Assembly (NCBI GenBank): GCA_963700285.1
Contig: CAVOXA010000015.1
Span: 228,715 to 292,714 of the forward strand
Direction: 5' to 3'
Source of the DNA: an uncultured Chloroflexia bacterium
Lineage (GTDB): Bacteria; Chloroflexota; Anaerolineae; JAAYZQ01
DNA length: 64,000 bases
The notes under the pieces are model-generated. The model made no database searches. It was not told the origin of the DNA and saw nothing but the letters and a program-made list of their open reading frames with translations. Position 1 is the first letter of the stretch; each line of letters opens with the position of its first letter. Positions 11,971 to 29,690 of the stretch are shown here, piece after piece. Both the position numbers and the translations under genes were made by a program.

Positions 11971-14900
11971 CTACGACATGGCCATGTCAACAGCAGCCAT
12001 CAGTTGTTTGTGCTCAAAGGTCTTTTGCAGGGTGGCCTTGTTGGGACAGACCATGGCGCACACCCCGCAGCCCTGGCACAAGACATAATCCACGTCCGCC
12101 ACCCGCGTGTCCTGGTTCATCACCCGCGCACCGTAGGGACAAGCTTCCTCGCACAGACCGCAGAAGCTGCACAGCCGTTCGTTGACCCACACCGACGTTG
12201 GCCGGTCCTCCACCACCTCCGGCGCCAGAAAAGCCGCGGCCCGCATCGCCGCCCCCCGTCCCTGGACCAGCGTCTCTTCCAGGAAGCGGGGACTGTGGGC
12301 CAGCCCCGCCACATAGATGCCGCCCCCTTTCGCGCTCTGAAGATCCAGCGGCTTCATCTTGGCCTGCTCCTCCCGGAAAAAACCGTCGCCGTCCAACGTC
12401 AGCCCCAACTTTCCCGCCAGCGCCCCCTCTTCCTCAGCGTCGATGCCCACGCTAAGGACCAGCAATCCGGCTTCCAATACCAGCGACTGTCCGGTCACCG
12501 GCTCGACGAGGCTCACCGCCAGCCGGTCCCCCTCCGCCCTGACGGCGGGCTTGTCCGGCACCTCGTAGCGCAGGAACACCACCCCCGCATCCCGCGCCGC
12601 CTGATAGTAGGCTTCGCGAAAGCCGTAGGTCCGCACCTCGCGGTAGAGGACATAGACCTCCAGCCTGGGCTTCAATTCCTTGAGCTTCAGGGCGTTCTTG
12701 ACCGCCAGGGTACAGCATACCCGGCTGCAATAGGGCCGCTCCGGCTCCCGAGAACCAACACACTGGATCATGACTACCCGCTGCACTGTGGCCAGCGTGC
12801 CGTCGGCGATCTGCTGCTCCAGCTCGCGCTGCGTCAGCACCCGCGGGTCCTGGCCGTAGAGGTATTCCTCCGTCACCGCTGGTCCGCCGCCGGTGGCCAC
12901 CACCAGCACGCCGTGGTCCACCACCTCTTGCCGACCGTTCACGCCGACGGTCGTCCGATACTGGCCGGCTTTGCCCTGGTAGTCCACCACTTCGGCGCCT
13001 AGATGAACCCTGATCCGCTCCTCAGCCGCCACCTGGGCGACCAAGTCAGCCAGGGCCGCCTGCGGATCACTGCCGTCGGCCTGATAGTGGATGTGACGCC
13101 ACTGGCCGCCCAGGCTCGATTCCCGCTCCACCAGGACCACGGGAATGTCCAACCGGGCCAGGGCCAGCGCGGCCGCCATCCCCGCCGCCCCACCGCCAAC
13201 CACCACCGCCCGGCGAGTCAGCGTTTGGCTACCGCCCAGCGCCAGGGCTTCCACCCCGGCCATGGTCCTCAGGCCGGCCACGGCCATGCCTACCAGGGAT
13301 CGGGCTTTCCCGACCTGGGCTTCCCGGGCCAGATCCGCCCCGTTGCCGCGGTGGGGGTAGACCACCTGCTCCCGCAGGTTGGCCCGCGCCAGCAGCCGGG
13401 GGTCCAGTCCGGCATCCCGCATTATCGCCTCGAATTCGCCGCCGAACAGCCGCGGCGAACAGCCGGCGACCACGACCCGGTTCAGTCCCTCAGACTCAAT
13501 GGCCGCACCCATGGCGGCCCGCCCCTCCGGCGAGCAACCCTCCGGCACGGCCCGCGCCAGGGCCACCCCAGGCAGCTCCTTCGCCCAAGCTGCCAATTCT
13601 GGTACGCCAACAGGCGCCAGTTCGCCGTTGCACTCACAGACAAAGACCCCCACCCTGGGCTCCTCATCCGAAACGTCGCGATATCCTTCCGCTATCTGCC
13701 CTCTGTCGTCTGGCGTCCGTCGCCTGTCGCCGGATGCCTGCATCCGCTGTGTCTGTCCAGCCAGGTACCCCGCCACCTCAGCCGCCGCCCCCGCCGCCTC
13801 GGCCACCGTCTCGGGGATATCCTTTGGCTCGCGGAAAGCGCCGGCTACGAACACGCCAGGGTGGTCCATGTGCGTCGGCTGGTAGCCGCCCGTCCGGGCA
13901 AAGCCGTACTCGTTCAGCGCCACCCCCAGCTCGCGGGCCAGGGCCTGCATCCCTGCCGGAGGCGCCAAGCCCACCGCCAGTACCAGCAGGTCAAAGGCTT
14001 CCTCCCGCAGCTTGCCCTCTTCGCCCACGTAGGTTACGGCCAGGTCCCGCGTGCGCTGCCGCTGGTAGACCGACGAGGGCATGGCCCGCAGGTACCTCAC
14101 CCCTGGCAACGCCTGCACCCCCTCTATGTAGGCCTCGAAATCCTTGCCAAAGGCGCGCAGGTCCATGGTAAAGACCGTCGCTTCCAGCTCCGGGTCCAAC
14201 TCCTTGGCCAGGGCCACCTGCTTGGCCGTGTACATGCAGCAGACCGAGGAGCAGTAGCCCGCTCCGCAGAGGTTGTCCCGCGAGCCGACGCAGTGCACAA
14301 AGGCGACCCGCTTCGGTGCCTTGCCGTCCGACGGCCGGGCCAGGTGGGCCACGCTGGAGCCCGCCAGGCTGGCCATCCGTTCAAACTCCAGGGCGGAGAG
14401 CACATTGTCATAGACCCCGTAGCCGTACTCACCCTTGACCCGGGCCTCAAAGGGCGCATAGCCGGGCGCCAGCAACACGGCGTCCACGTCCAGGACCTGC
14501 TTGCGGTCCGCCATCTCCAGGTCGATGGCGCCGGTAGGGCAGGCATCCACGCAGGCGCCACAGCGGGTGCAGGTTTCCATGTCGATGACCCAGGCATCGG
14601 GCACCGCCCGCAGTCCCGGGGGCCGGTAGATGGCCTTGACCGGCGAAAGCCTGCCCTCGTGGTCGTGGGGCCGGGCTTCGGGGCAGACGGCGGCGCAGTC
14701 GCCACAGCCATTGCACCGGTCCACGTCCACGTAGCGGGCCTTGTGGTTGACAGTGACCTGGGGCGCCCCGTTTCCCGGTCCACCAGCACCCCAATCTACG
14801 GCCGAGACCTCGGCGTAGGGCAAGAGGTGGACATCCTCTCTGGCTTCGCACTCGAAGGTGGGGCAGAAAGCCGGCTGCCGGGGCAGCATGAGGCAGATGC

Positions 14901-15087
14901 CGCAAGAGTTGGTGGGAAAGGTATGGTCCAGCAGGTGCATCGAGCCGCCAATGGCCGGCGCGGCGTCCAGCAGGTAGACCTCGATGCCCAGCTCGGCCAG
15001 GTGCATCGCCGCTGCCATGCCGGCGATCCCCCCACCGGCGACCAGGACGCTGTGCTTGCCTTTGTCCAGTGAATCGGCTCTTTCCAC
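11971..15087 (-). CDS. hdrA: Double-length HdrA-like protein (two FAD domains, 1038 aa)
   Basis: Two GGGxAG motifs, two CVGSR..YCS..CC blocks, internal RVGVFVCECNG domain, several ferredoxin motifs; GTG start. Confidence 0.9.
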   Translation of the reverse strand: MERADSLDKGKHSVLVAGGGIAGMAAAMHLAELGIEVYLLDAAPAIGGSMHLLDHTFPTNSCGICLMLPRQPAFCPTFECEAREDVHLLPYAEVSAVDWGAGGPGNGAPQVTVNHKARYVDVDRCNGCGDCAAVCPEARPHDHEGRLSPVKAIYRPPGLRAVPDAWVIDMETCTRCGACVDACPTGAIDLEMADRKQVLDVDAVLLAPGYAPFEARVKGEYGYGVYDNVLSALEFERMASLAGSSVAHLARPSDGKAPKRVAFVHCVGSRDNLCGAGYCSSVCCMYTAKQVALAKELDPELEATVFTMDLRAFGKDFEAYIEGVQALPGVRYLRAMPSSVYQRQRTRDLAVTYVGEEGKLREEAFDLLVLAVGLAPPAGMQALARELGVALNEYGFARTGGYQPTHMDHPGVFVAGAFREPKDIPETVAEAAGAAAEVAGYLAGQTQRMQASGDRRRTPDDRGQIAEGYRDVSDEEPRVGVFVCECNGELAPVGVPELAAWAKELPGVALARAVPEGCSPEGRAAMGAAIESEGLNRVVVAGCSPRLFGGEFEAIMRDAGLDPRLLARANLREQVVYPHRGNGADLAREAQVGKARSLVGMAVAGLRTMAGVEALALGGSQTLTRRAVVVGGGAAGMAAALALARLDIPVVLVERESSLGGQWRHIHYQADGSDPQAALADLVAQVAAEERIRVHLGAEVVDYQGKAGQYRTTVGVNGRQEVVDHGVLVVATGGGPAVTEEYLYGQDPRVLTQRELEQQIADGTLATVQRVVMIQCVGSREPERPYCSRVCCTLAVKNALKLKELKPRLEVYVLYREVRTYGFREAYYQAARDAGVVFLRYEVPDKPAVRAEGDRLAVSLVEPVTGQSLVLEAGLLVLSVGIDAEEEGALAGKLGLTLDGDGFFREEQAKMKPLDLQSAKGGGIYVAGLAHSPRFLEETLVQGRGAAMRAAAFLAPEVVEDRPTSVWVNERLCSFCGLCEEACPYGARVMNQDTRVADVDYVLCQGCGVCAMVCPNKATLQKTFEHKQLMAAVDMAMS
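13692..13740. repeat. Degenerate 7-bp tandem repeat inside the hdrA coding sequence
   Basis: CTATCTG CCCTCTG TCGTCTG GCGTCCG TCGCCTG TCGCCGG ATGCCTG. Confidence 0.55.
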
Positions 15088-15103
15088 GTTGAAAGCTCCT
15101 GCG

Positions 15104-16000
15104 CTAGACCAGGCCCAACCGGCCCAAGAGCGGCCGGGGGTTGACCAGGTGCTTGCCCAATACCTTTTTCAAAGACAGACCATAGGCCAAGGCCATCAAC
15201 TCGGTGAAGTAAAAGATGGGCAGCGGTTCATAACCGGGTTTGGGTGGTCGCGGCAGCGGCGGTCCGCCGCGGTAAAGCTGCCGCCCATCGACGTTGGCCA
15301 TGCACATAGGGCAGGCCGTGACCAGGGCATCGGCCCCCGCCTCGTGGGCGGCGATGGCCAGTCTGTCCACCAGATGGACCACTACGTCGCTGCGGTTCAG
15401 GGTCAGGCTGCCGCCGCAGCAGTCCACGCCGTAGCTCCAGGGCATCGCCTCGGCGCCCATCAGCTCGATGATATGGTCCATCGTCTGCGGGTGCTCCGGG
15501 TCGTCCCAGCGACCGGTATACTTGGGCGGCCGGATGAGCAGGCAGCCATAGTAGGCTGCGACCTTTAGGCCTTCCAGCGGCGCCTTGACCCTGGCCGTCA
15601 ACGCCTCCCTGGACAGGTCGTTGGCCAGGATGTCCAGCAGGCTGCGGGGCCGCACCCGGCCTTCATACTCAAAGTCCAGCACCGACTCCATCCTGGCCCG
15701 GAAGGCGCCGTCCTGCTGCAGGGCCAGGTCGGCGGCTGCCAGCCGCGAGTAGCAGGCCGCGCAGGGGATGGCCATATCGTCCAGGCCCACTTTCTGCGCC
15801 TGGGCCAGGTTGCGGGCTGGCAGGGCCAGAAAGAGGGCGGGATCCATAGAGTGGGCCGACGACGCCCCGCAGCAGTTCCAGTCGGGGATCTCGACCATCT
15901 CCAGGTCCAGCGCCTGGCAGACCAGCTCGCTGCTGACCCCAAACTCCACGCCCGTCGAATGCAGCGTGCAGCCCGGATAGAAGGCATACCGTCTCGTCAT
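15104..16000 (-). CDS. hdrB: Heterodisulfide reductase subunit B
   Basis: YAFYPGCTL, DWNCCGA, PCAACY, YYGCLL, CCGGS, TACPMC. Confidence 0.92.
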   Translation of the reverse strand: MTRRYAFYPGCTLHSTGVEFGVSSELVCQALDLEMVEIPDWNCCGASSAHSMDPALFLALPARNLAQAQKVGLDDMAIPCAACYSRLAAADLALQQDGAFRARMESVLDFEYEGRVRPRSLLDILANDLSREALTARVKAPLEGLKVAAYYGCLLIRPPKYTGRWDDPEHPQTMDHIIELMGAEAMPWSYGVDCCGGSLTLNRSDVVVHLVDRLAIAAHEAGADALVTACPMCMANVDGRQLYRGGPPLPRPPKPGYEPLPIFYFTELMALAYGLSLKKVLGKHLVNPRPLLGRLGLV

Positions 16001-16007
16001 CCCGACC

Positions 16008-16547
16008 TCACCCTGAATCCTCATCCCCCAGCTCAAACAGTTCCTTGACCTGGCCGATGTTCTGGATGCGCTTGGGCAGGGGATGGATCTTGCCCTTGAG
16101 GAACATGTCCAACCCCATGTCCAGGTTGCTGAACAGGTCGCGGCTGGTGAGCTTGTGCTGGAGGATCATGGTCAATTCGTGCAGCCGGCCCCAGGTGCGG
16201 ATGCTGTCCAGAAAGGCCTGGTGCAGCTTGAACACCGATTGCTCTGCCGGGCTGACCCCTTCGGCCAGGGCGATGTGGCGCAGGGCGTCGATGACGGCGC
16301 CGGGGTGGATCTCGTTGGGGCAACGCGTGCCGCAGGTCTCGCAGCCGATGCACAGCCAGATGGCCGAGGAGCGAAGGAGGGCGTCCTTCTGACCCAGTTG
16401 GACCAAACGCAAGATCTGGGCCGGCGTGTATTCCATGGCGTAAGCCGACGGGCAGCCTGCCGAGCAGCGCAGGCAGTAGTAGCAGCGGCTTACGTTCTGC
16501 TGGCTCAGTTCGCTGACCTGTCTGATGAAGGTCAAGTCTGGATCCAT
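16008..16547 (-). CDS. hdrC: Heterodisulfide reductase subunit C
   Basis: CYYCLRCSAGCP and WLCIGCETCGTRCP; immediately upstream of hdrB. Confidence 0.9.
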   Translation of the reverse strand: MDPDLTFIRQVSELSQQNVSRCYYCLRCSAGCPSAYAMEYTPAQILRLVQLGQKDALLRSSAIWLCIGCETCGTRCPNEIHPGAVIDALRHIALAEGVSPAEQSVFKLHQAFLDSIRTWGRLHELTMILQHKLTSRDLFSNLDMGLDMFLKGKIHPLPKRIQNIGQVKELFELGDEDSG

Positions 16548-16867
16548 GGCTCCGTCCCTCGCCAAGTGTTCACCCTATTGGCGGTACCTGGTCCCTCACT
16601 ACTCGGTCTTGCTGCCCATTTCACAAACGAAAACTGCCCACGCGGCCTGCTAGGGCCAGCCTGGGCAGCATAGATCAGTTGCATGCGTGACGGCGGTCAC
16701 CCTTCTGCAACAAGGACGCTGTCTCCTGCTGCACCGATCTGCGTCTCGCCCCCTGATTTCCAGGTTCCTATGGTTGGCCACAAAGCCGATCAAGTGAGAT
16801 CCCTTTCCTATGGGCATCACCACACTGCTCTTGGCCTTGGAGCCCCCATTGACCCCAATACGCCGGT

Positions 16868-17316: not shown

Positions 17317-18654
17317 ATGACGACAAAAGAAGAGATCACCCGCCGCGTGGCCGAGAAAGGCATCGAATTCATCAGCCTGCAGTTCACCGACATCGTGGGA
17401 TTGGTCAAGAGCGTAACCATTCCAGTTGAGGAGTTAGAGACCGCCCTGGATCGCGGCATCTGGTTCGATGGCTCTTCGGTGGAGGGTTTTGCCCGCATTG
17501 CCGAGAGTGACATGTATCTGGTCCCTGACCTGGATACCTTCTCGGTCATTCCTTGGGAGCAAGATAGCGGTGCAACCGCCCGTTTCATCTGCGACGTCTA
17601 CACACCTTCCGGCGAACCATTCCCAGGCGATCCCCGCCAGGTCCTCAAACGTGCCATACAGGAAGCCGCGGCGCTGGGGCTGAGCTATCACGCCGGACCG
17701 GAGCCAGAGTTCTTTCTCTTCAAGCGGGATGAGGATGGCGAGGCCGTGCCCCGGCCTCACGATCAAGGTGGTTATTTCGATCTCTCGACGGATCGCGGGG
17801 TCGAGGTGCGCAAGAGGATGGTCAGGGCGCTGTCCGCCTTTGGCATCCGGGTCGAAGCCAGCCACCACGAGGTTGCCACCGGCCAGCACGAGATCGACTT
17901 TCGCTACACCGACGCCCTGCGCGCCGCAGACAACGTAGTCACCTTCAAGGCGACGCTCAAGCAGGTCGCTCGACAGCATGGCTTGCACGCGACCTTTATG
18001 CCAAAACCAATTGCGGGCATCAGTGGTTCAGGCATGCATGTCCACCAGAGCTTGGTACGCATCGATAACGGCGAGAATGCGTTCGCTGACAATGGGGACG
18101 AGATTGGTATCTCAAAATTGGCCCGTCAATTCGTCGCTGGCCAGTTGGCCCACGCCCGAAATATGTGTGCGGTGCTATCCCCCCTGGTCAACTCCTACAA
18201 GCGCTTGGTCCCCGGTTACGAGGCGCCGGTGTACGTCAGTTGGGGACAGATCAATCGCTCGGCGCTGATCCGTGTACCACAAGTGACTCCCGACCGGCCC
18301 GAGTCTACACGATTGGAGATCCGCTGCCCCGATCCCAGTTGTAACCCTTATCTGGCCTTCGCCGTTATGCTGCGGGCAGGATTGGACGGCATCCATCGGG
18401 AGCTGGGAGCGCCAGCTATCTCGAATGAAGATCTGTACCACCTGGACGATCAAGGACGTGAGGCGCGTGGATTGGATACGCTGCCAGGCTCCCTGGGTGA
18501 GGCGCTAGAAGAACTAAAGCGCGACGAGCTCATGCTCGAAGCGCTGGGCGAACACATCTACGAGCGGTTCATCGAAGCCAAGACCATCGAGTGGCAGGAA
18601 TACTTGACCCAGGTCAGCAGCTGGGAGCTGGAGCGCTATTTGCGCGTATACTAG
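17317..18654 (+). CDS. glnA: Glutamine synthetase type I-alpha
   Basis: FDGSSVEGF, GPEPEFFLF, HHEVATGQHEI, ATFMPKP..SGSGMHVHQS, NSYKRLVPGYEAP, NRSALIR, RLEIRCPDPSCNPY. Confidence 0.97.
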   Translation: MTTKEEITRRVAEKGIEFISLQFTDIVGLVKSVTIPVEELETALDRGIWFDGSSVEGFARIAESDMYLVPDLDTFSVIPWEQDSGATARFICDVYTPSGEPFPGDPRQVLKRAIQEAAALGLSYHAGPEPEFFLFKRDEDGEAVPRPHDQGGYFDLSTDRGVEVRKRMVRALSAFGIRVEASHHEVATGQHEIDFRYTDALRAADNVVTFKATLKQVARQHGLHATFMPKPIAGISGSGMHVHQSLVRIDNGENAFADNGDEIGISKLARQFVAGQLAHARNMCAVLSPLVNSYKRLVPGYEAPVYVSWGQINRSALIRVPQVTPDRPESTRLEIRCPDPSCNPYLAFAVMLRAGLDGIHRELGAPAISNEDLYHLDDQGREARGLDTLPGSLGEALEELKRDELMLEALGEHIYERFIEAKTIEWQEYLTQVSSWELERYLRVY

Positions 18655-18761: not shown

Positions 18762-19238
18762 CTAGAGGTGTTTGGCAAAGATGAACAGGTCATCGCCAGG
18801 CGCGTAAAAGTCGCGGACCGATGCCTCGAGGCCGAAGCCGCTGGAGCTATAGAGCCTCCTCGCCGCAGCATAGGGCGCGGTGCTGGACGTTTCGACAAGC
18901 AGCAACCGCCCGCCTCGCGCCCGTACCTCGGCTTCCACCTGTGCCATCAGGCCATGGCCCATGCCATGCCCCTGGACAGCTGGACCGACGGCGATCCAGT
19001 ACAGGTCATAGGTCCCATCGGTCAGTGGGTGCGGCCCAAAACAAGCGTAGCCCTGGGCCGGACAGCCATCTTGGCTGGCAACCAGGAACACGTATCCGCT
19101 TGTTTCCTGCTTATCTTGGTACGCGTTCCAGAGCTCGAGAACACAGTCCCGTTCTGTAGGGTTGAAGATGCCAATCTGGCCTGTGATCTCCAGGATGGAT
19201 GGGCCATGGCTGGGCAACGCCTGCTCGATCGTGTGCAT
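18762..19238 (-). CDS. GNAT N-acetyltransferase, last gene of the KamA/ATP-grasp operon
   Basis: GYACFGP..GTYDLYWIAV..QGHGMGHGLM..VETSS..Y.AARRLY..GF..DFYAPGDD. Confidence 0.88.
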   Translation of the reverse strand: MHTIEQALPSHGPSILEITGQIGIFNPTERDCVLELWNAYQDKQETSGYVFLVASQDGCPAQGYACFGPHPLTDGTYDLYWIAVGPAVQGHGMGHGLMAQVEAEVRARGGRLLLVETSSTAPYAAARRLYSSSGFGLEASVRDFYAPGDDLFIFAKHL

Positions 19239-20256
19239 AGAACTGTCTCCAGGCAAACTCGACAATCTGTTCCGCCATTTCACCATAGCTGTACCCAGCC
19301 GTCCTGGCGGCGCGAAAGAATCCTGCATCTGGTGAAAGGTCCGGATTGCAGTTGACTTCTACGACGTAAGGTACACACTCTTCGCTCAAGCGCATGTCCA
19401 CGCGGGCATAGCCATGGCAGCCGAGGGCATGCCAGGCCCGTAACGCCGTGGCAGTAATGCAGACCCCCACCTCTGATTCTAGCGGGGCTGGGCAGAGCAC
19501 CGGCGTGTTCCGGTACTCAAAGCTCTCTTCCTCCCACTTGGCGGCAAAAGACACGATGCGCTCGTACGGGTCGGAAAAGGCGCAAAAGTCGATCTCAGCC
19601 AGCGGCAACACCTGAGGAGGATCTCCCCAGATGGAAACGTTGAATTCTCGCCCCACCACAAAGGCCTCCGCCAGGGCCGTCTGCCTATAAGCATCCACAA
19701 CGTAGGCGATCCGCTCACGCAGCGCGCCCACCGTATGGACCACTGCCTCCGGCCCCACGCCGATGCTTGCATCCTCGGCGACCGGCTTGACGATGAGTGG
19801 GAAGGACAGTTCGTCGATCCGCTCCTGCACCTCGTCGGGGTGGCAAAACAGCCACCACGCTGGAGTGGGCACGTCGTTATCCAGCAACAGGTCCTTTGTT
19901 TTGGCCTTGTGCGCACCATGGGCTATGGCGCTCCCACCAGATCCGGTGAAACAGTAGCCCATGGCGCCCAGAGCCCAGGCAATGCGCGCTTCCTCAAAGA
20001 GCTTGCCTGCCAAGCCCTCGGCCAGGTTAAAGACGGTCCATTGGCTGGGGGGATACGGGGTTAGGGTCGTCTCCACGTCGCCGTAGAGGGGTACCCCGGT
20101 CACCCGGTAGCCCCTGGCGCACAAGGCATCTATCACGGCTTGGGCGCAAGCGATGACGCCCTGCTCGGCCAAAAGATCCCGTGCCTCGCCTTTGATCAGA
20201 TCGGCACTGGCGTTGTACAGCACTGCAATCCCCGGGGATTGCCAGTTCGTTCTCAT
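19111..20256 (-). CDS. D-Ala-D-Ala ligase-like ATP-grasp enzyme (second ligase)
   Basis: VFNLAEG, FPLIVKPVAEDASIGV, EAFVVGREFNV, GYARVDMRL, VEVNCNPDLSPDAGF; start overlaps the upstream stop (ATGA). Confidence 0.88.
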   Translation of the reverse strand: MRTNWQSPGIAVLYNASADLIKGEARDLLAEQGVIACAQAVIDALCARGYRVTGVPLYGDVETTLTPYPPSQWTVFNLAEGLAGKLFEEARIAWALGAMGYCFTGSGGSAIAHGAHKAKTKDLLLDNDVPTPAWWLFCHPDEVQERIDELSFPLIVKPVAEDASIGVGPEAVVHTVGALRERIAYVVDAYRQTALAEAFVVGREFNVSIWGDPPQVLPLAEIDFCAFSDPYERIVSFAAKWEEESFEYRNTPVLCPAPLESEVGVCITATALRAWHALGCHGYARVDMRLSEECVPYVVEVNCNPDLSPDAGFFRAARTAGYSYGEMAEQIVEFAWRQFYAHDRAGVAQPWPIHPGDHRPDWHLQPYRTGLCSRALERVPR

Positions 20257-22901
20257 CCCACACCTCCTAGGGTCAGGGGCGCCAGCAATGGTGGAGTCAG
20301 GCCACCTGGCCTCAAGTGATCCTGGCCAACACTCCAGAGCGGAGGCCTGTAGCTGGGCGCTTTGAGTCCGTACCGCTCCGCGGCCAGGTAGAGGATCTCG
20401 TTGATCATTTCGTCGTAGGCCAACGCCTCCGCCCGGGCCATTATGCACAAATCACTGGAAACCGGGTTCATGCCCGGCAGCGTATTGATCTCCATCAAGT
20501 AGGGCTGGCCGTCGCTCCCCAAGCGAAAGTCCACCCGGCTGACGTCGAACGCTCCCAAGGCCTCAAAGGCTTCTACGGCCAGTTCTTTGAGCCTAGCTTC
20601 CAGGTCCGGCGGGATGTCTGCGGGACAAAAGTAGTTGGGGGCCTCTTCCTCGCCTGGAAGATAAGACTTGGAGACAGCATTGTAAAAGCCCGCATTGTCA
20701 CCCACGTTGGCGTCGATCTCCAGGATGGGGAAGACGTGGAACCCTCGCCGGTCGTACAGGTCACTGCGTCGTACTGCCCGTGGCGCTTGTGAGTTGCCAA
20801 AAAAGCCTACTGTGAACTCCCTCCCGGACAGGTAGCTCTCCACCAGCGCCGGTTGGTGATAGACGTCTATCGCCCACCGCACCTGGCGTCGCAATTCGGC
20901 CTCGGTATGCACTACCGATTGGCTATTGATGCCCATACCGGTGCCCTCTCGTAGCGGCTTGACGAACAGTGGAAAAGCCAGAAGGTGGTCCAGCGCTTCC
21001 TCGCCCGTGCGAAAGACTTGGAACGGCGATGTGGGCAGGCCCATGTCGCGCCAGATACGCTTGGCGGCCGCCTTGTCCAGCGACAGGGTGTGGCCCGATA
21101 CCTGAGAAGCGCTAAAGGGAATACCCAACATCTGCAACACTGCCGGCACGTGAGACTCGCGGGCCTCACCCTGCATGCCTTCGGCGATGTTAAAGCAGAT
21201 GTCCGGGGCCGCCTGCCGTACAGTATCGAGAAAAGTCCCATCCGCTTCCAGTCGGATCACCTGATGCCCACCCACGCGCAGCGCGGTCTCCAACGCATTC
21301 ACGGTTTCCAACGAGTCGTACTCGGCAAGGGCATCCGGAGGCGCTCCGGGAGCGGCCTCCACATTGGCCTTGAGGTTGTAGACCAAGCCCACACGCCACC
21401 CCCGCCGCTGGATCCTGTTTTTTATGTTCACAGCCCCAACTGTGTGGGGCCGGGGTAGCTTCGGCCGGCCGGTTGTTTTGGATACGGCTTTGTTGTCGCC
21501 CGAATCCATAGTCCAGAGCGGTTTCCAGTGTCCATTGCCATTACTGCCGGGCAGCGCCAACCGAGCTGGCACGACCTGCGACTCATCTCCTCGTTGGTGG
21601 AGAGAGCGCCACCCCTCGGGTGCGATGGTACGCGCTTCACCGGTCAGTAGCCCAGCCACGCCTTCTTGCTTCCCCTCGCTGCGGTGGGCTTGGCAGTAGC
21701 CGCAGGTGGCGGGGTCGTGGGCGGTGTAGACCGGTGGTTGCGCGTAGGCGCTAACAAAGCCCTCAAAGTTGCGCACCACTGCCATCTGGTCAGACATGCT
21801 GAGGAGGTAATTGGGCTGGATCGGTACCTTGCCGCCACCTTCCGGTGCATCGATGACAAATGTTGGTACGGCAAGACCTGAAGTATGGCCGCGCAGCGAT
21901 TCGATGATCTCCATGCCCTTGGCAACCGGTGTTCGGAAATGACCCGCGCCGTGGACCAGATCGCACTGGTAGATGTAATAGGGACGCACCCGATTCTGCA
22001 CCAGCCGATGGACCAGCTTCCGCATGACATTGGGGCAGTCATTGATCCCGGCCAGAAGCACTGTCTGGCTTCCCAGAGGAATGCCGGCATCCGCCAGGAG
22101 CGCCAGTGCGGCCTCGACCTCTGGCGCGATCTCTTTGGGGTGGTTGAAGTGGATGTTCATCCACAGGGGATGGTACCGGCGCAGCATCGCCACCAGGTCT
22201 TCAGTGATACGCTGGGGAAGAAAGACCGGTACCCGCGTTCCGATGCGGATGATCTCCACATGGCGAATCTCTCGAAGACGCGCTAGCAGACTCTCCAGCA
22301 CCCGCTGAGGCAGGGCCAGGGGATCACCGCCGGAGATCAATACATCCCGGATCTGAGGGCTGGCGGCGATGTACGCAATCTGCGCCTCGTGCTGGCTCGT
22401 GCTGAACTGGATGTGTGGATCTCCCACCATCCGGCTCCGGGTACAAAAGCGACAGTAGCTGGCGCACTGCGTGGTGACCAGCATCAACACCCGGTCGGGG
22501 TAGCGATGGACGAGCCCCGCCACGGGCGAATGGGCGTCCTCGGACAGGGCGTCTGCCATCTCGGCTTCGAATGGCAGGGCCTCACGGCCGGTGGGGATGA
22601 CCTGGCGCCGGATGGGACAATTGGGATCGTCGGGATCGATCAGACTTGCGAAATGGGGGGTGGTTTCTGCACGAAAGCAGTCTGGGGCTGCAAGACCTGC
22701 AACTTCTTCGGGAGTGAGGTGGATCAACCGCGCAAAGTCGTCCAGGGTGCTCAGGCGGTTGGACAACTGCCAGCGCCAGTCGCCCCATGTGGACGGCGAA
22801 GCGTCCAGCCACGGAGGGGGAGGTTCATCTGTACCGGGAGGTTCCTCCAATTCAGCCAAGTTTTCTTGCTCGCTCATTCTGGTTGACTCGCTCCTACCCA
22901 T
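20253..22901 (-). CDS. kamA: Lysine 2,3-aminomutase (KamA) fused to a C-terminal Ddl-like ATP-grasp domain
   Basis: HRYPDRVL, CASYCRFC, DVLISGGDPL, HFNHPKE, YQCDL, IDAPEGGGK; then FNIAEG, FVKPLREGTGMGI, GREFTVG, RVDFRL, EINTLPG, all in one 882-aa frame. Confidence 0.9.
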   Translation of the reverse strand: MGRSESTRMSEQENLAELEEPPGTDEPPPPWLDASPSTWGDWRWQLSNRLSTLDDFARLIHLTPEEVAGLAAPDCFRAETTPHFASLIDPDDPNCPIRRQVIPTGREALPFEAEMADALSEDAHSPVAGLVHRYPDRVLMLVTTQCASYCRFCTRSRMVGDPHIQFSTSQHEAQIAYIAASPQIRDVLISGGDPLALPQRVLESLLARLREIRHVEIIRIGTRVPVFLPQRITEDLVAMLRRYHPLWMNIHFNHPKEIAPEVEAALALLADAGIPLGSQTVLLAGINDCPNVMRKLVHRLVQNRVRPYYIYQCDLVHGAGHFRTPVAKGMEIIESLRGHTSGLAVPTFVIDAPEGGGKVPIQPNYLLSMSDQMAVVRNFEGFVSAYAQPPVYTAHDPATCGYCQAHRSEGKQEGVAGLLTGEARTIAPEGWRSLHQRGDESQVVPARLALPGSNGNGHWKPLWTMDSGDNKAVSKTTGRPKLPRPHTVGAVNIKNRIQRRGWRVGLVYNLKANVEAAPGAPPDALAEYDSLETVNALETALRVGGHQVIRLEADGTFLDTVRQAAPDICFNIAEGMQGEARESHVPAVLQMLGIPFSASQVSGHTLSLDKAAAKRIWRDMGLPTSPFQVFRTGEEALDHLLAFPLFVKPLREGTGMGINSQSVVHTEAELRRQVRWAIDVYHQPALVESYLSGREFTVGFFGNSQAPRAVRRSDLYDRRGFHVFPILEIDANVGDNAGFYNAVSKSYLPGEEEAPNYFCPADIPPDLEARLKELAVEAFEALGAFDVSRVDFRLGSDGQPYLMEINTLPGMNPVSSDLCIMARAEALAYDEMINEILYLAAERYGLKAPSYRPPLWSVGQDHLRPGGLTPPLLAPLTLGGVG

Positions 22902-28121: not shown

Positions 28122-29690
28122 CTACGGTGCGGCAAACTCCACAATAGCCATGCCCAACCCGTCCACCGTCACCGGCACCTGAATGTCAGCTCCCTCCGGT
28201 TGCAGGTAGTAGGTACTGGGCCACAGCCCGCCAAACTCACAGGCATCAGACCCATATTCGGGCTTGGTGCCTGTCGTGCAAGTGGCGTGCCAGCCTCCCC
28301 CACCGGTGATTTGTACTGGCACACCTCTCCAGTTGAGCACGCGCACGACGATCACCGATGAGACCCCCGTACGCCCAGGCCTTTCCCCACTGCTGTTGCT
28401 GGCCACCCAGCCCCGCCAACGCGGTGCTGCCGGAGCCAAAGTGGGCTGAAAGACCGCCAGGGGGCCGACCGTTGGGATCCGGGTGGGCGCTCCACCGGCG
28501 AGAGAGGTGGCCGTAGGCTGAACCGGAGGGCGGGCTGGCTTTGGAGGCACCGCGGAAACCTCATCGAAGCGCACCAGCGCCCAGCCCCACCCATCCATGG
28601 TGATCTCGGCGCTGGTACTGAGCCCCTTGGGTGTGATGGTGTAGGTCCCGGCCCGCAGCGCGCCGAATTCACAGGCATCGGGCCCATACTCCGGTTTGTA
28701 TCCGGTCTGGCAGGTGCCGCTCCAGTTGCCCGACTTGATCTCAACCTCGTGCCACGGCCGGCCCGCTACCACCACGGCGATGGCCGAGTTGACGTGCTCA
28801 GTCGGCTCGGCGCCACTGGTGTTCTCGGCCACTGAGCCGGCCCAATGGAACTCGGCCTTGCCAACCGGATAGAACGCGACCAGCACAAAGTCGCCCGGCT
28901 CCACTTTTACATCCAGGTGTGTTCCGAGCTCACACGGAGTGATGCGATAGATCCCAGACTGCAGTGCGCCAAACTCCAAGGCGTCGGGGCCATGTTCCGG
29001 CTTGGTACCCGTTTTTTGGAGGGCGCCCCAATCTCCAGATCGGATCTCAACCTGCTGGCCCGCAGGCTGGCCAACCACGCGTACGGTGACGGAAGCCCAA
29101 TGAACACCCATGGGGTTCTTCTCATGGCGCACGACGCGGCCATACCAGCTCTGTGCAGGCTGTGGTTGGTGGGTTGGCGCGGGTGGTTGGGGCGTGACCG
29201 TAGCCGGTTGCGGTGTAGCCCATACCTGGACGCGAGGCGTGGTCGTGGGCAGGCGGGGTGTGTACGTGGGCGTTGGGGCGCAGGGGCTCTGGACAAAGTT
29301 CACCCGCGTATAGTTCTTGCCGTCCAACCAGATCTCAAAGACGATACCCAATCCTTGAGGCTCGATGAAATAGATCCCTTGGCTTAACGGGGCAAACTCG
29401 GCCACAAAGGGGCCGTATTCCGGCTTGGTATTGGTATAACCCACCGTGTTAAAGTCCCCTAGCGAGTGGACTCTTACTGGTAGCCAGGGCTTGCCCCACA
29501 CCGACACCCGCAGCACGCTTCCAATCAGGCTTACGTCGGTTCGCTGCTCGGTGATTGTCGCTCTCCAGCAACTGGCGGCCTGGACGCCGGGCTGCTGGCC
29601 TCCCGATCCCCATAGTAGTTGGCTGGCCAGAACCGCGATTGCAGCCAAAGCCAGCCAACCCCACCTGAAGGATCTCTTGGCTTGGACCAC
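28122..29690 (-). CDS. Secreted protein with four ~95-aa beta-rich repeats and Pro/Thr linkers
   Basis: Signal peptide; four copies of T(G/N)xKPE(Y/H)G..(A)xEFxxL..G.Y.I.P. Confidence 0.8.
   Translation of the reverse strand: MVQAKRSFRWGWLALAAIAVLASQLLWGSGGQQPGVQAASCWRATITEQRTDVSLIGSVLRVSVWGKPWLPVRVHSLGDFNTVGYTNTKPEYGPFVAEFAPLSQGIYFIEPQGLGIVFEIWLDGKNYTRVNFVQSPCAPTPTYTPRLPTTTPRVQVWATPQPATVTPQPPAPTHQPQPAQSWYGRVVRHEKNPMGVHWASVTVRVVGQPAGQQVEIRSGDWGALQKTGTKPEHGPDALEFGALQSGIYRITPCELGTHLDVKVEPGDFVLVAFYPVGKAEFHWAGSVAENTSGAEPTEHVNSAIAVVVAGRPWHEVEIKSGNWSGTCQTGYKPEYGPDACEFGALRAGTYTITPKGLSTSAEITMDGWGWALVRFDEVSAVPPKPARPPVQPTATSLAGGAPTRIPTVGPLAVFQPTLAPAAPRWRGWVASNSSGERPGRTGVSSVIVVRVLNWRGVPVQITGGGGWHATCTTGTKPEYGSDACEFGGLWPSTYYLQPEGADIQVPVTVDGLGMAIVEFAAP

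Follow-up and report, generated by a model that had tools for sequence, protein, structure and literature searches.

The 64,000-nucleotide stretch of DNA analyzed here (the window; contig CAVOXA010000015.1, positions 228,715 to 292,714, from an uncultured Chloroflexia bacterium, henceforth the host) carries on its minus strand a gene in which a KamA of the lysine 2,3-aminomutase family is fused to an ATP-grasp ligase of the Ddl fold (ligase A), followed by a second ligase of this fold (ligase B) and a GNAT acetyltransferase. The KamA::ligase A fusion is genuine and recurrent. The cassette of kamA, ligase A, ligase B and GNAT is a widespread orphan pathway of known enzyme kinds, which stands outside the known beta-lysine systems. 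From the sequences we give an even chance to a product that is a cationic, acetylated, polyamine-like beta-lysyl amide. The elements of the cassette, in window coordinates, are as follows.

20253..22901, minus strand: kamA::ligase A fusion open reading frame (ORF), 882 aa, stop-free; 874 aa if started at Met9
21609..22808, minus strand: KamA (lysine 2,3-aminomutase family) domain, approximately aa 32-431
21402..21608, minus strand: linker between KamA and ligase A, ~69 aa
20358..21401, minus strand: ligase A (Ddl-fold ATP-grasp), aa ~501-848, PF07478
20263..20268, minus strand: Shine-Dalgarno-like AGGAGG ahead of ligase B, within the end of the fusion gene
19111..20256, minus strand: ligase B (Ddl-fold ATP-grasp), 381 aa, domain end at ~aa 338
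18762..19238, minus strand: GNAT acetyltransferase, 158 aa, family of PDB 2R7H

An earlier note on this DNA had described a single 882-aa frame that joins KamA to a Ddl-like ATP-grasp domain through a linker of ~65 aa. The frame is free of stops and both domains were detected in it; the linker is present, with a length of ~69 aa rather than ~65 aa. Across the linker (21400-21600), where a check against reads had been proposed, short-read contigs from runs X1, X6 and X7, which represent two studies, matched the window exactly and revealed no stop or frameshift. The two contigs of X1 (21370-21604 and 21581-21857), that of X6, from another study (21571-21721), and that of X7 (21572-21722) each had 0 differences and 0 gaps; the stretch 21370-21570 is backed by a single contig, from X1, which may be the source sample. 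Fused proteins are found elsewhere as well, with at least five full-length examples (63-82% identical) and at least two partial ones among 120 listed of 1319 long homologues. In its first half the linker is similar to the C-terminal tail that KamA relatives without the fusion have, and the reading frame of this tail is kept in the fused relatives, among which the linker differs in both length and sequence. An assembly artefact is ruled out by the exact contig matches together with the fused relatives. One relative, 94-98% identical, is split into two entries (P0259/P0260) by one-base shifts. Because one of these shifts also hits the conserved ligase domain, the split looks like an error in that record, which is the simpler reading.

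Only a minority of cassettes, confined to particular lineages, carry the fusion. It was seen in none of the 10 GTDB loci with kamA and ligase A (among 80 loci) and in none of 26 complete cassettes from a second phylum. In a tree of the two domains, the fused proteins fell into three groups, interleaved with the unfused L001, L184 and L005; a single clade of fused proteins was not rejected by the approximately unbiased (AU) test (p-AU 0.164). A metagenome ORF (L192) gave partial matches to both the KamA and the ligase domains.

The gene junctions are tight, and both of the overlaps reported earlier were seen. At 20253-20256 (ATGA) the start codon of ligase B shares letters with the TGA of the fusion gene; this overlap and the AGGAGG ahead of it indicate translational coupling of the two genes. 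The GNAT begins inside the tail of ligase B, with a 128-nt overlap that takes in the last ~40 codons of the ligase, and its ATG is preceded by GGAG at 19247-19250. A long ligase B/GNAT overlap of similar kind occurs in the relatives L002, L176 and L187. Translation of the fusion probably starts at Met9 (22877), which has an AGGAG upstream and is where the relative P0004 begins. A scan of promoters and terminators gave nothing above chance, and the contigs of an RNA run (X5) covered short pieces only, which do not demonstrate expression.

The KamA domain scored 326.7 with the KamA-family model (cut-off 199.2) and matched PDB 2A5H with an E value of 4.5e-145. Scores were far lower, relative to the respective cut-offs, with the models for glutamate aminomutase (418 against 650) and arginine aminomutase (378 against 600), and the EpmB model gave 228.7 against 369.3. 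The domain contains the motifs CxxxCxxC, YQCDL and IDAPEGGGK and a C-terminal CxxC. Its residues C146/C150/C153, R155, D314, D351 and K358 align with C125/C129/C132, R134, D293, D330 and K337 of 2A5H, of which we take the last four to be the binders of lysine and pyridoxal phosphate (PLP). Equivalents of these four were kept in 82 of 82 cassette KamAs, across visibly different KamA subgroups, and each cluster cysteine in 81-82 of the 82. The retention of the radical S-adenosylmethionine (SAM) motif, the PLP lysine and both acidic residues, claimed in the earlier note, holds well beyond the window. Lysine is the most likely substrate, as judged by these comparisons. A search for a glutamate-aminomutase comparator found none over the cut-off in 14 genomes. 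As to stereochemistry, PMC2821294 gives (R)-beta-lysine as the product of YjeK and the (S) form as that of the classical lysine 2,3-aminomutase.

Profile and neighborhood analysis of KamA, the two Ddl-like ligases and the GNAT, an approach that had been recommended for this cluster, revealed a recurrent cassette in several phyla. The host phylum, Chloroflexota according to named relatives, was sampled with 401 genomes including the host. Ligase A was present in 64 of these, ligase B in 28 (one of which has a ligase-A-type paralogue instead) and KamA in 144. KamA accompanied ligase A in 61 of 63 genomes when the host was set aside (400 genomes). Of 45 genomes in the host class, 37 had both and the remaining 8 lacked both, a pattern that also holds for unlinked genes; these co-occurrence counts include kin, which are not independent. 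Ligase A was found in every ligase-B genome and the converse fails, which makes KamA and ligase A the core, with ligase B and the GNAT as an extension. In the second phylum, centered on a Holophagales record, ligase A was present in 50 of 201 genomes. Forty loci, of 54 matches, were fetched: 26 held all four genes, nine lacked only an adjacent kamA, three had both ligases, and two had one ligase. The complete set thus stands together in 26/40 second-phylum loci, compared to 16/49 in Chloroflexota and 19/80 among metagenome loci, the latter often short.

Further fusions connect the remaining members of the cassette. Ligases A and B are fused in L283, ligase B and the GNAT in five of 11 long GNAT matches and also in L274, L284 and L285, and the GNAT and KamA in P0131. 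Tandem double ligases, both halves of which score best as ligase A, account for 111 of 120 listed matches, with source names, where given, from Myxococcota. The functional link between KamA and the ligases, for which the earlier note had cited the fusion, is borne out by these fusions, by the kept gene order and by matching presence and absence.

Both ligases scored well below the cut-off of the Ddl model (171.9 and 137.3, compared to 243) and are 20-28% identical to Ddl. Their predicted structures, of high predicted local distance difference test (pLDDT) score (92), have the three-domain Ddl fold, with template-modeling (TM) scores of 0.75-0.79 to the top Ddl structures. Fold searches with both ligases returned Ddl structures only and no closer non-Ddl ligase, and a search of plasmids returned distant ligases only. 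The catalytic set of amide-forming ATP-grasp enzymes (two lysines, an aspartate, ExN and an arginine, as listed in PMC4431377) is complete in both. The substrate pocket is another matter. In an alignment to the host's own Ddl, from which nine partial or outlying rows had been excluded beforehand, ligase A had Glu for His63, Arg for Glu68 and Asp for Leu282 in 36 of 36 homologues; ligase B had Glu or Asp for His63, Asp for Gly276, Trp for Tyr216 and Gly for Leu282 in 31 of 31. Both ligases carry new, invariant acids where Ddl has residues that line its D-Ala sites. The acids at the donor site would fit a diamino acid as donor, and the Asp at the position that meets the acceptor carboxylate in Ddl would favor an acceptor with a second amine, as far as the alignment indicates. 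The abundant double-ligase proteins P0136-P0247 (665-773 aa), with names from Myxococcus, Corallococcus, Archangium and Polyangia, mostly have Ser at the Gly276 position of their first half.

The cassette ligases thus share with the Ddl/Van family the fold and the ATP/Mg catalytic residues, and Ddl enzymes are their best profile and fold matches. This likeness is what speaks for alternative D-Ala-D-X ligases of peptidoglycan synthesis, with KamA as a passenger, a reading to which we attach very little credence. The scores lie far under the curated cut-offs, acids replace the D-Ala pocket residues, and the host has a separate true Ddl near murF. MurF over the cut-off was absent from four of four complete cassette genomes tested (1.7-1.9 Mb), in which the cassette is intact; it is therefore not for peptidoglycan. 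To that extent the envelope component considered in the earlier note is weakened. Further Ddl-like families exist outside the cassette (L123, L133, L136, L140, L141 and L294). The L123 gene adjoins a KamA-like radical SAM protein that has no lysine-binding Asp residues, the L133 gene an opine-dehydrogenase fusion, and those of L141 and L294 a Peptidase_Mx-like gene.

The following sequence of steps is proposed. KamA would, very probably, convert L-lysine to beta-lysine. Ligase A, with slightly better than even probability, would activate the carboxylate of beta-lysine as an acyl phosphate and join it to an amine with a second positive charge. This acceptor could be the epsilon-amine of another beta-lysine or lysine, or a di- or polyamine, two options that are not separable here; both are retained, because the first option is self-contained, would require no enzymes other than KamA and ligase A, and fits the minimal genomes. 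Whether ligase B adds a second unit to the product of ligase A is, in our estimate, evenly balanced. The GNAT would acetylate a terminal amine of the product, and an acetylpolyamine-amidohydrolase-like enzyme would remove the acetyl group again in some lineages. The fusion would hold beta-lysine beside its consumer. Candidate physiological roles are those of a polyamine surrogate, an osmolyte or a nitrogen store.

The genomic context has polyamine features. A gene for arginine decarboxylase, agmatinase and/or a member of the deoxyhypusine/homospermidine-synthase family stands directly before ligases A and B in seven of 80 metagenome loci, and in four of eight genomes of one family kamA has a divergently oriented agmatinase-family gene as its neighbor. 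Of 179 loci, 5 have a gene for a GNAT::deacetylase within the cassette or next to it, in one case between kamA and ligase A; the best single-domain PDB matches of this protein are acetylpolyamine amidohydrolases (6phr, 246.8 bits). The acidic pockets and the polyamine-type neighbors favor a cationic, polyamine-like amide over an ordinary small peptide of the kind the earlier note had envisaged; the link between KamA and the ligases and the probable lysine substrate, both in that note, are upheld. In L208, L210 and L222, a third, RimK-like ATP-grasp gene (for example L210:4188-4964; a weak match, 31.6 bits) is located between arginine decarboxylase and ligase A.

Several points weigh against the proposed pathway and against a polyamine acceptor as the general case. 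The seven polyamine-linked loci have no adjacent kamA and belong to a single ligase-A clade, and so amount to one or two independent cases. An adjacent kamA is likewise missing from 13 of 39 second-phylum ligase-A loci (the locus only being considered). Of 44 genomes, one had pyruvoyl arginine decarboxylase and 15 had agmatinase, which was not found in any of the 9 members of a family with ligase A throughout. None of five genomes had a member of the deoxyhypusine-synthase family, and one of five had a strong spermidine synthase. The host genome, which is 89% complete, has agmatinase-family genes but matched neither the decarboxylase nor the synthase, and it lacks an orthologue of the GNAT::deacetylase. 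The pocket mapping comes from a sequence alignment, and in it the E. coli Ddl numbering (His63, Glu68, Ser150/Tyr216, Gly276, Ser281/Leu282) and the roles of these residues are presumed. The KamA domain scored 518.5 bits with TIGR03820, just below the cut-off of 525.4, and we assume the value of its two Asp residues as discriminators between lysine and glutamate.

The patchy distribution of the polyamine genes would be matched by a product that requires none of them. In such a scheme, beta-lysine serves as the amine acceptor and an ordinary amino acid (Glu, Asp, Gln or Ala) as the acyl donor, which would give a zwitterionic di- or tripeptide as osmolyte or nitrogen store, subsequently N-acetylated. 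The invariant Arg that ligase A has instead of Glu68 could accommodate a further carboxylate, and glnA adjoins the cassette, though convergent and not recurrent. Most of the changed pocket positions in both ligases, however, gain acids and not bases, and complete small genomes hold an AblA::AblB fusion for the known osmolyte plus a separate kamA-ligase A pair. We regard the ordinary-donor peptide as unlikely.

For the cationic beta-lysyl amide there are precedents of chemistry. In pyrrolysine synthesis, the radical-SAM lysine mutase PylB feeds the ATP-grasp ligase PylC, which acylates an epsilon-amine. The cassette shares this logic, when compared by description, with another mutase chemistry, another ligase family and no PylD/PylS/PylT context. 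Beta-lysine is joined to amines in antibiotics, as in the oligo-beta-lysine of streptothricin and the beta-lysyl-spermidine of tallysomycin, and glutathionylspermidine and trypanothione synthetases acylate a polyamine in ATP-dependent steps. These systems use adenylation of the nonribosomal peptide synthetase type or other ligase families, in specialized clusters; the cassette is compact and housekeeping-like, and is found in anaerobes and soil bacteria.

The earlier note had also set aside the known contexts of beta-lysine. This stood for the AblAB osmolyte and for EF-P modification by EpmA; for KamDE fermentation, PF09043 (KamD, beta-lysine 5,6-aminomutase) was not found in five genomes, where control genomes gave no positive either. 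The AblA/AblB system has in common with the cassette a KamA-type mutase and a GNAT, with an acetylated beta-lysine unit as the likely end state. It differs in that the cassette GNAT is no AblB (TIGR03827 matched neither this protein nor the host genome) and in that two ATP-grasp ligases intervene. AblAB is ruled out as the explanation by the absence of AblB from the host and by a complete 1.5 Mb genome that encodes an AblA::AblB fusion (L150:5658-7952, both domains over cut-off) in addition to a separate kamA-ligase A pair. Ligase A might, alternatively, take the place of EpmA and beta-lysylate EF-P, since Anaerolineae with KamA and ligase A have no EpmA-sized match. The host, which has no EpmA, has Arg and not Lys at the loop tip of its EF-P, as do most ligase-A-positive and all eight negative genomes tested; in G057, whose EF-P is of the Lys type, an EpmA-like gene of its own stands next to efp. 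Lysylation of EF-P in the host is ruled out by these features, and a general role of ligase A in it is exceedingly improbable. The EF-P of L308 and L316 (G121 and G346) has Asn-Trp at the loop tip instead of the Arg/Lys-Gly pair.

A protein target was considered as well, with beta-lysine or its peptide placed by the ligases on the acidic tail of a small LysW-like zinc-ribbon carrier or target. In eight loci (L003, L165, L176, L179, L180, L185, L187 and L195), kamA or ligase A is preceded within ~60 nt by a LysW-like ORF, and the host carries two LysW-like copies behind a response regulator on another contig. In some Anaerolineae the arrangement is thus reminiscent of LysW/LysX, with an ATP-grasp ligase near a small acidic-tailed zinc-ribbon protein; it differs in that the ligases are Ddl-like, not LysX, and in that the small protein is absent from most cassette lineages examined. 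Upstream of the cassette in the window there is no such gene. None was found among 40 loci of the second phylum, and none in two complete cassette genomes, while two other genomes gave only weak matches inside long ORFs. The LysW-like protein scores 27.5, the LysW cut-off being 53.2, and its C-terminal residue is variable, not Glu. We consider a protein target improbable, and the LysW-like proteins look like a lineage-specific, co-regulated accessory. In the host genome (G000) their locus, G000:C1:1454992-1456420 (L248 7978-9422, minus strand), comprises a response regulator split over two frames and then two LysW-like zinc-ribbon genes with acidic tails. This module adjoins the kamA cassette in relatives.

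The GNAT matched PDB 2R7H with 173 bits (E 3.7e-50), and the next PDB match had 40 bits. This entry, the sole solved member of the family, bears the title 'Putative D-alanine N-acetyltransferase of GNAT family', and no functional paper on it was found in the open-licence literature. The D-alanine label is doubtful, because the ligase pockets differ from the D-Ala type. Were the GNAT an acyl or aminoacyl transferase, the product, rather than being a free metabolite, could decorate a lipid or surface glycan or serve as its head group. Glycosyltransferases and methyltransferases do follow ligase B in one locus group, and the GNAT is fused to methyltransferases in four of 11 long matches. The GNAT of the cassette is, however, a small single-domain protein of the acetyl-CoA type, and the neighborhoods compared held no exporter, flippase or lipid enzyme that recurs across lineages. 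Such a decoration is quite improbable.

A prior characterization of the cluster, named in the earlier note as a possible refutation, was not found in open-licence PMC and bioRxiv, where descriptions with Greek-letter spellings of 'beta-lysine' may have escaped the search. Beta-lysine is known from fermentation, the AblAB osmolyte, EF-P and antibiotics; the cassette points to a further fate, and there is a real chance that its product represents a new class of metabolite. In its broadest form, which we hold to be possible at somewhat less than even chance, several phyla (Chloroflexota including wall-less lineages, Acidobacteriota and, by protein evidence, Myxococcota) would make an as yet unrecognized, polyamine-like class of metabolites, either oligo-beta-lysine or a beta-lysyl-polyamine amide, from two re-tooled Ddl-fold ligases, with acetylation and deacetylation as the switch. 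If true, beta-lysine would mainly take this route in thousands of genomes whose KamA is now unexplained. As the cassette consists of three or four small genes, its product could be found by heterologous expression and labeling, for which the fusion is a single-gene entry point to the first two steps. As biocatalysts, too, ligases for the coupling of beta-amino acids with amines would be of use.

A few other features of the window and the host are recorded here. The glnA gene beside the cassette encodes a type I glutamine synthetase (17317-18654, plus strand, TIGR00653 over cut-off); it did not recur as a neighbor among the cassette loci compared. HdrA-, HdrB- and HdrC-like genes lie in a row at 11971-16565 (minus strand) and encode a flavoprotein with Fe-S repeats, a CCG-domain protein and a small Fe-S protein, the HdrC-like assignment of which is by cysteine motif only. 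In the host genome (G000:C3:55027-55966), a lysyl-tRNA-synthetase-like gene is broken over two frames, so the host assembly probably has some indel errors elsewhere. At 28122-29690 (minus strand), the window encodes a 522-aa protein, with no Pfam match at 1e-10, which is secreted-looking and contains an internally repeated module.

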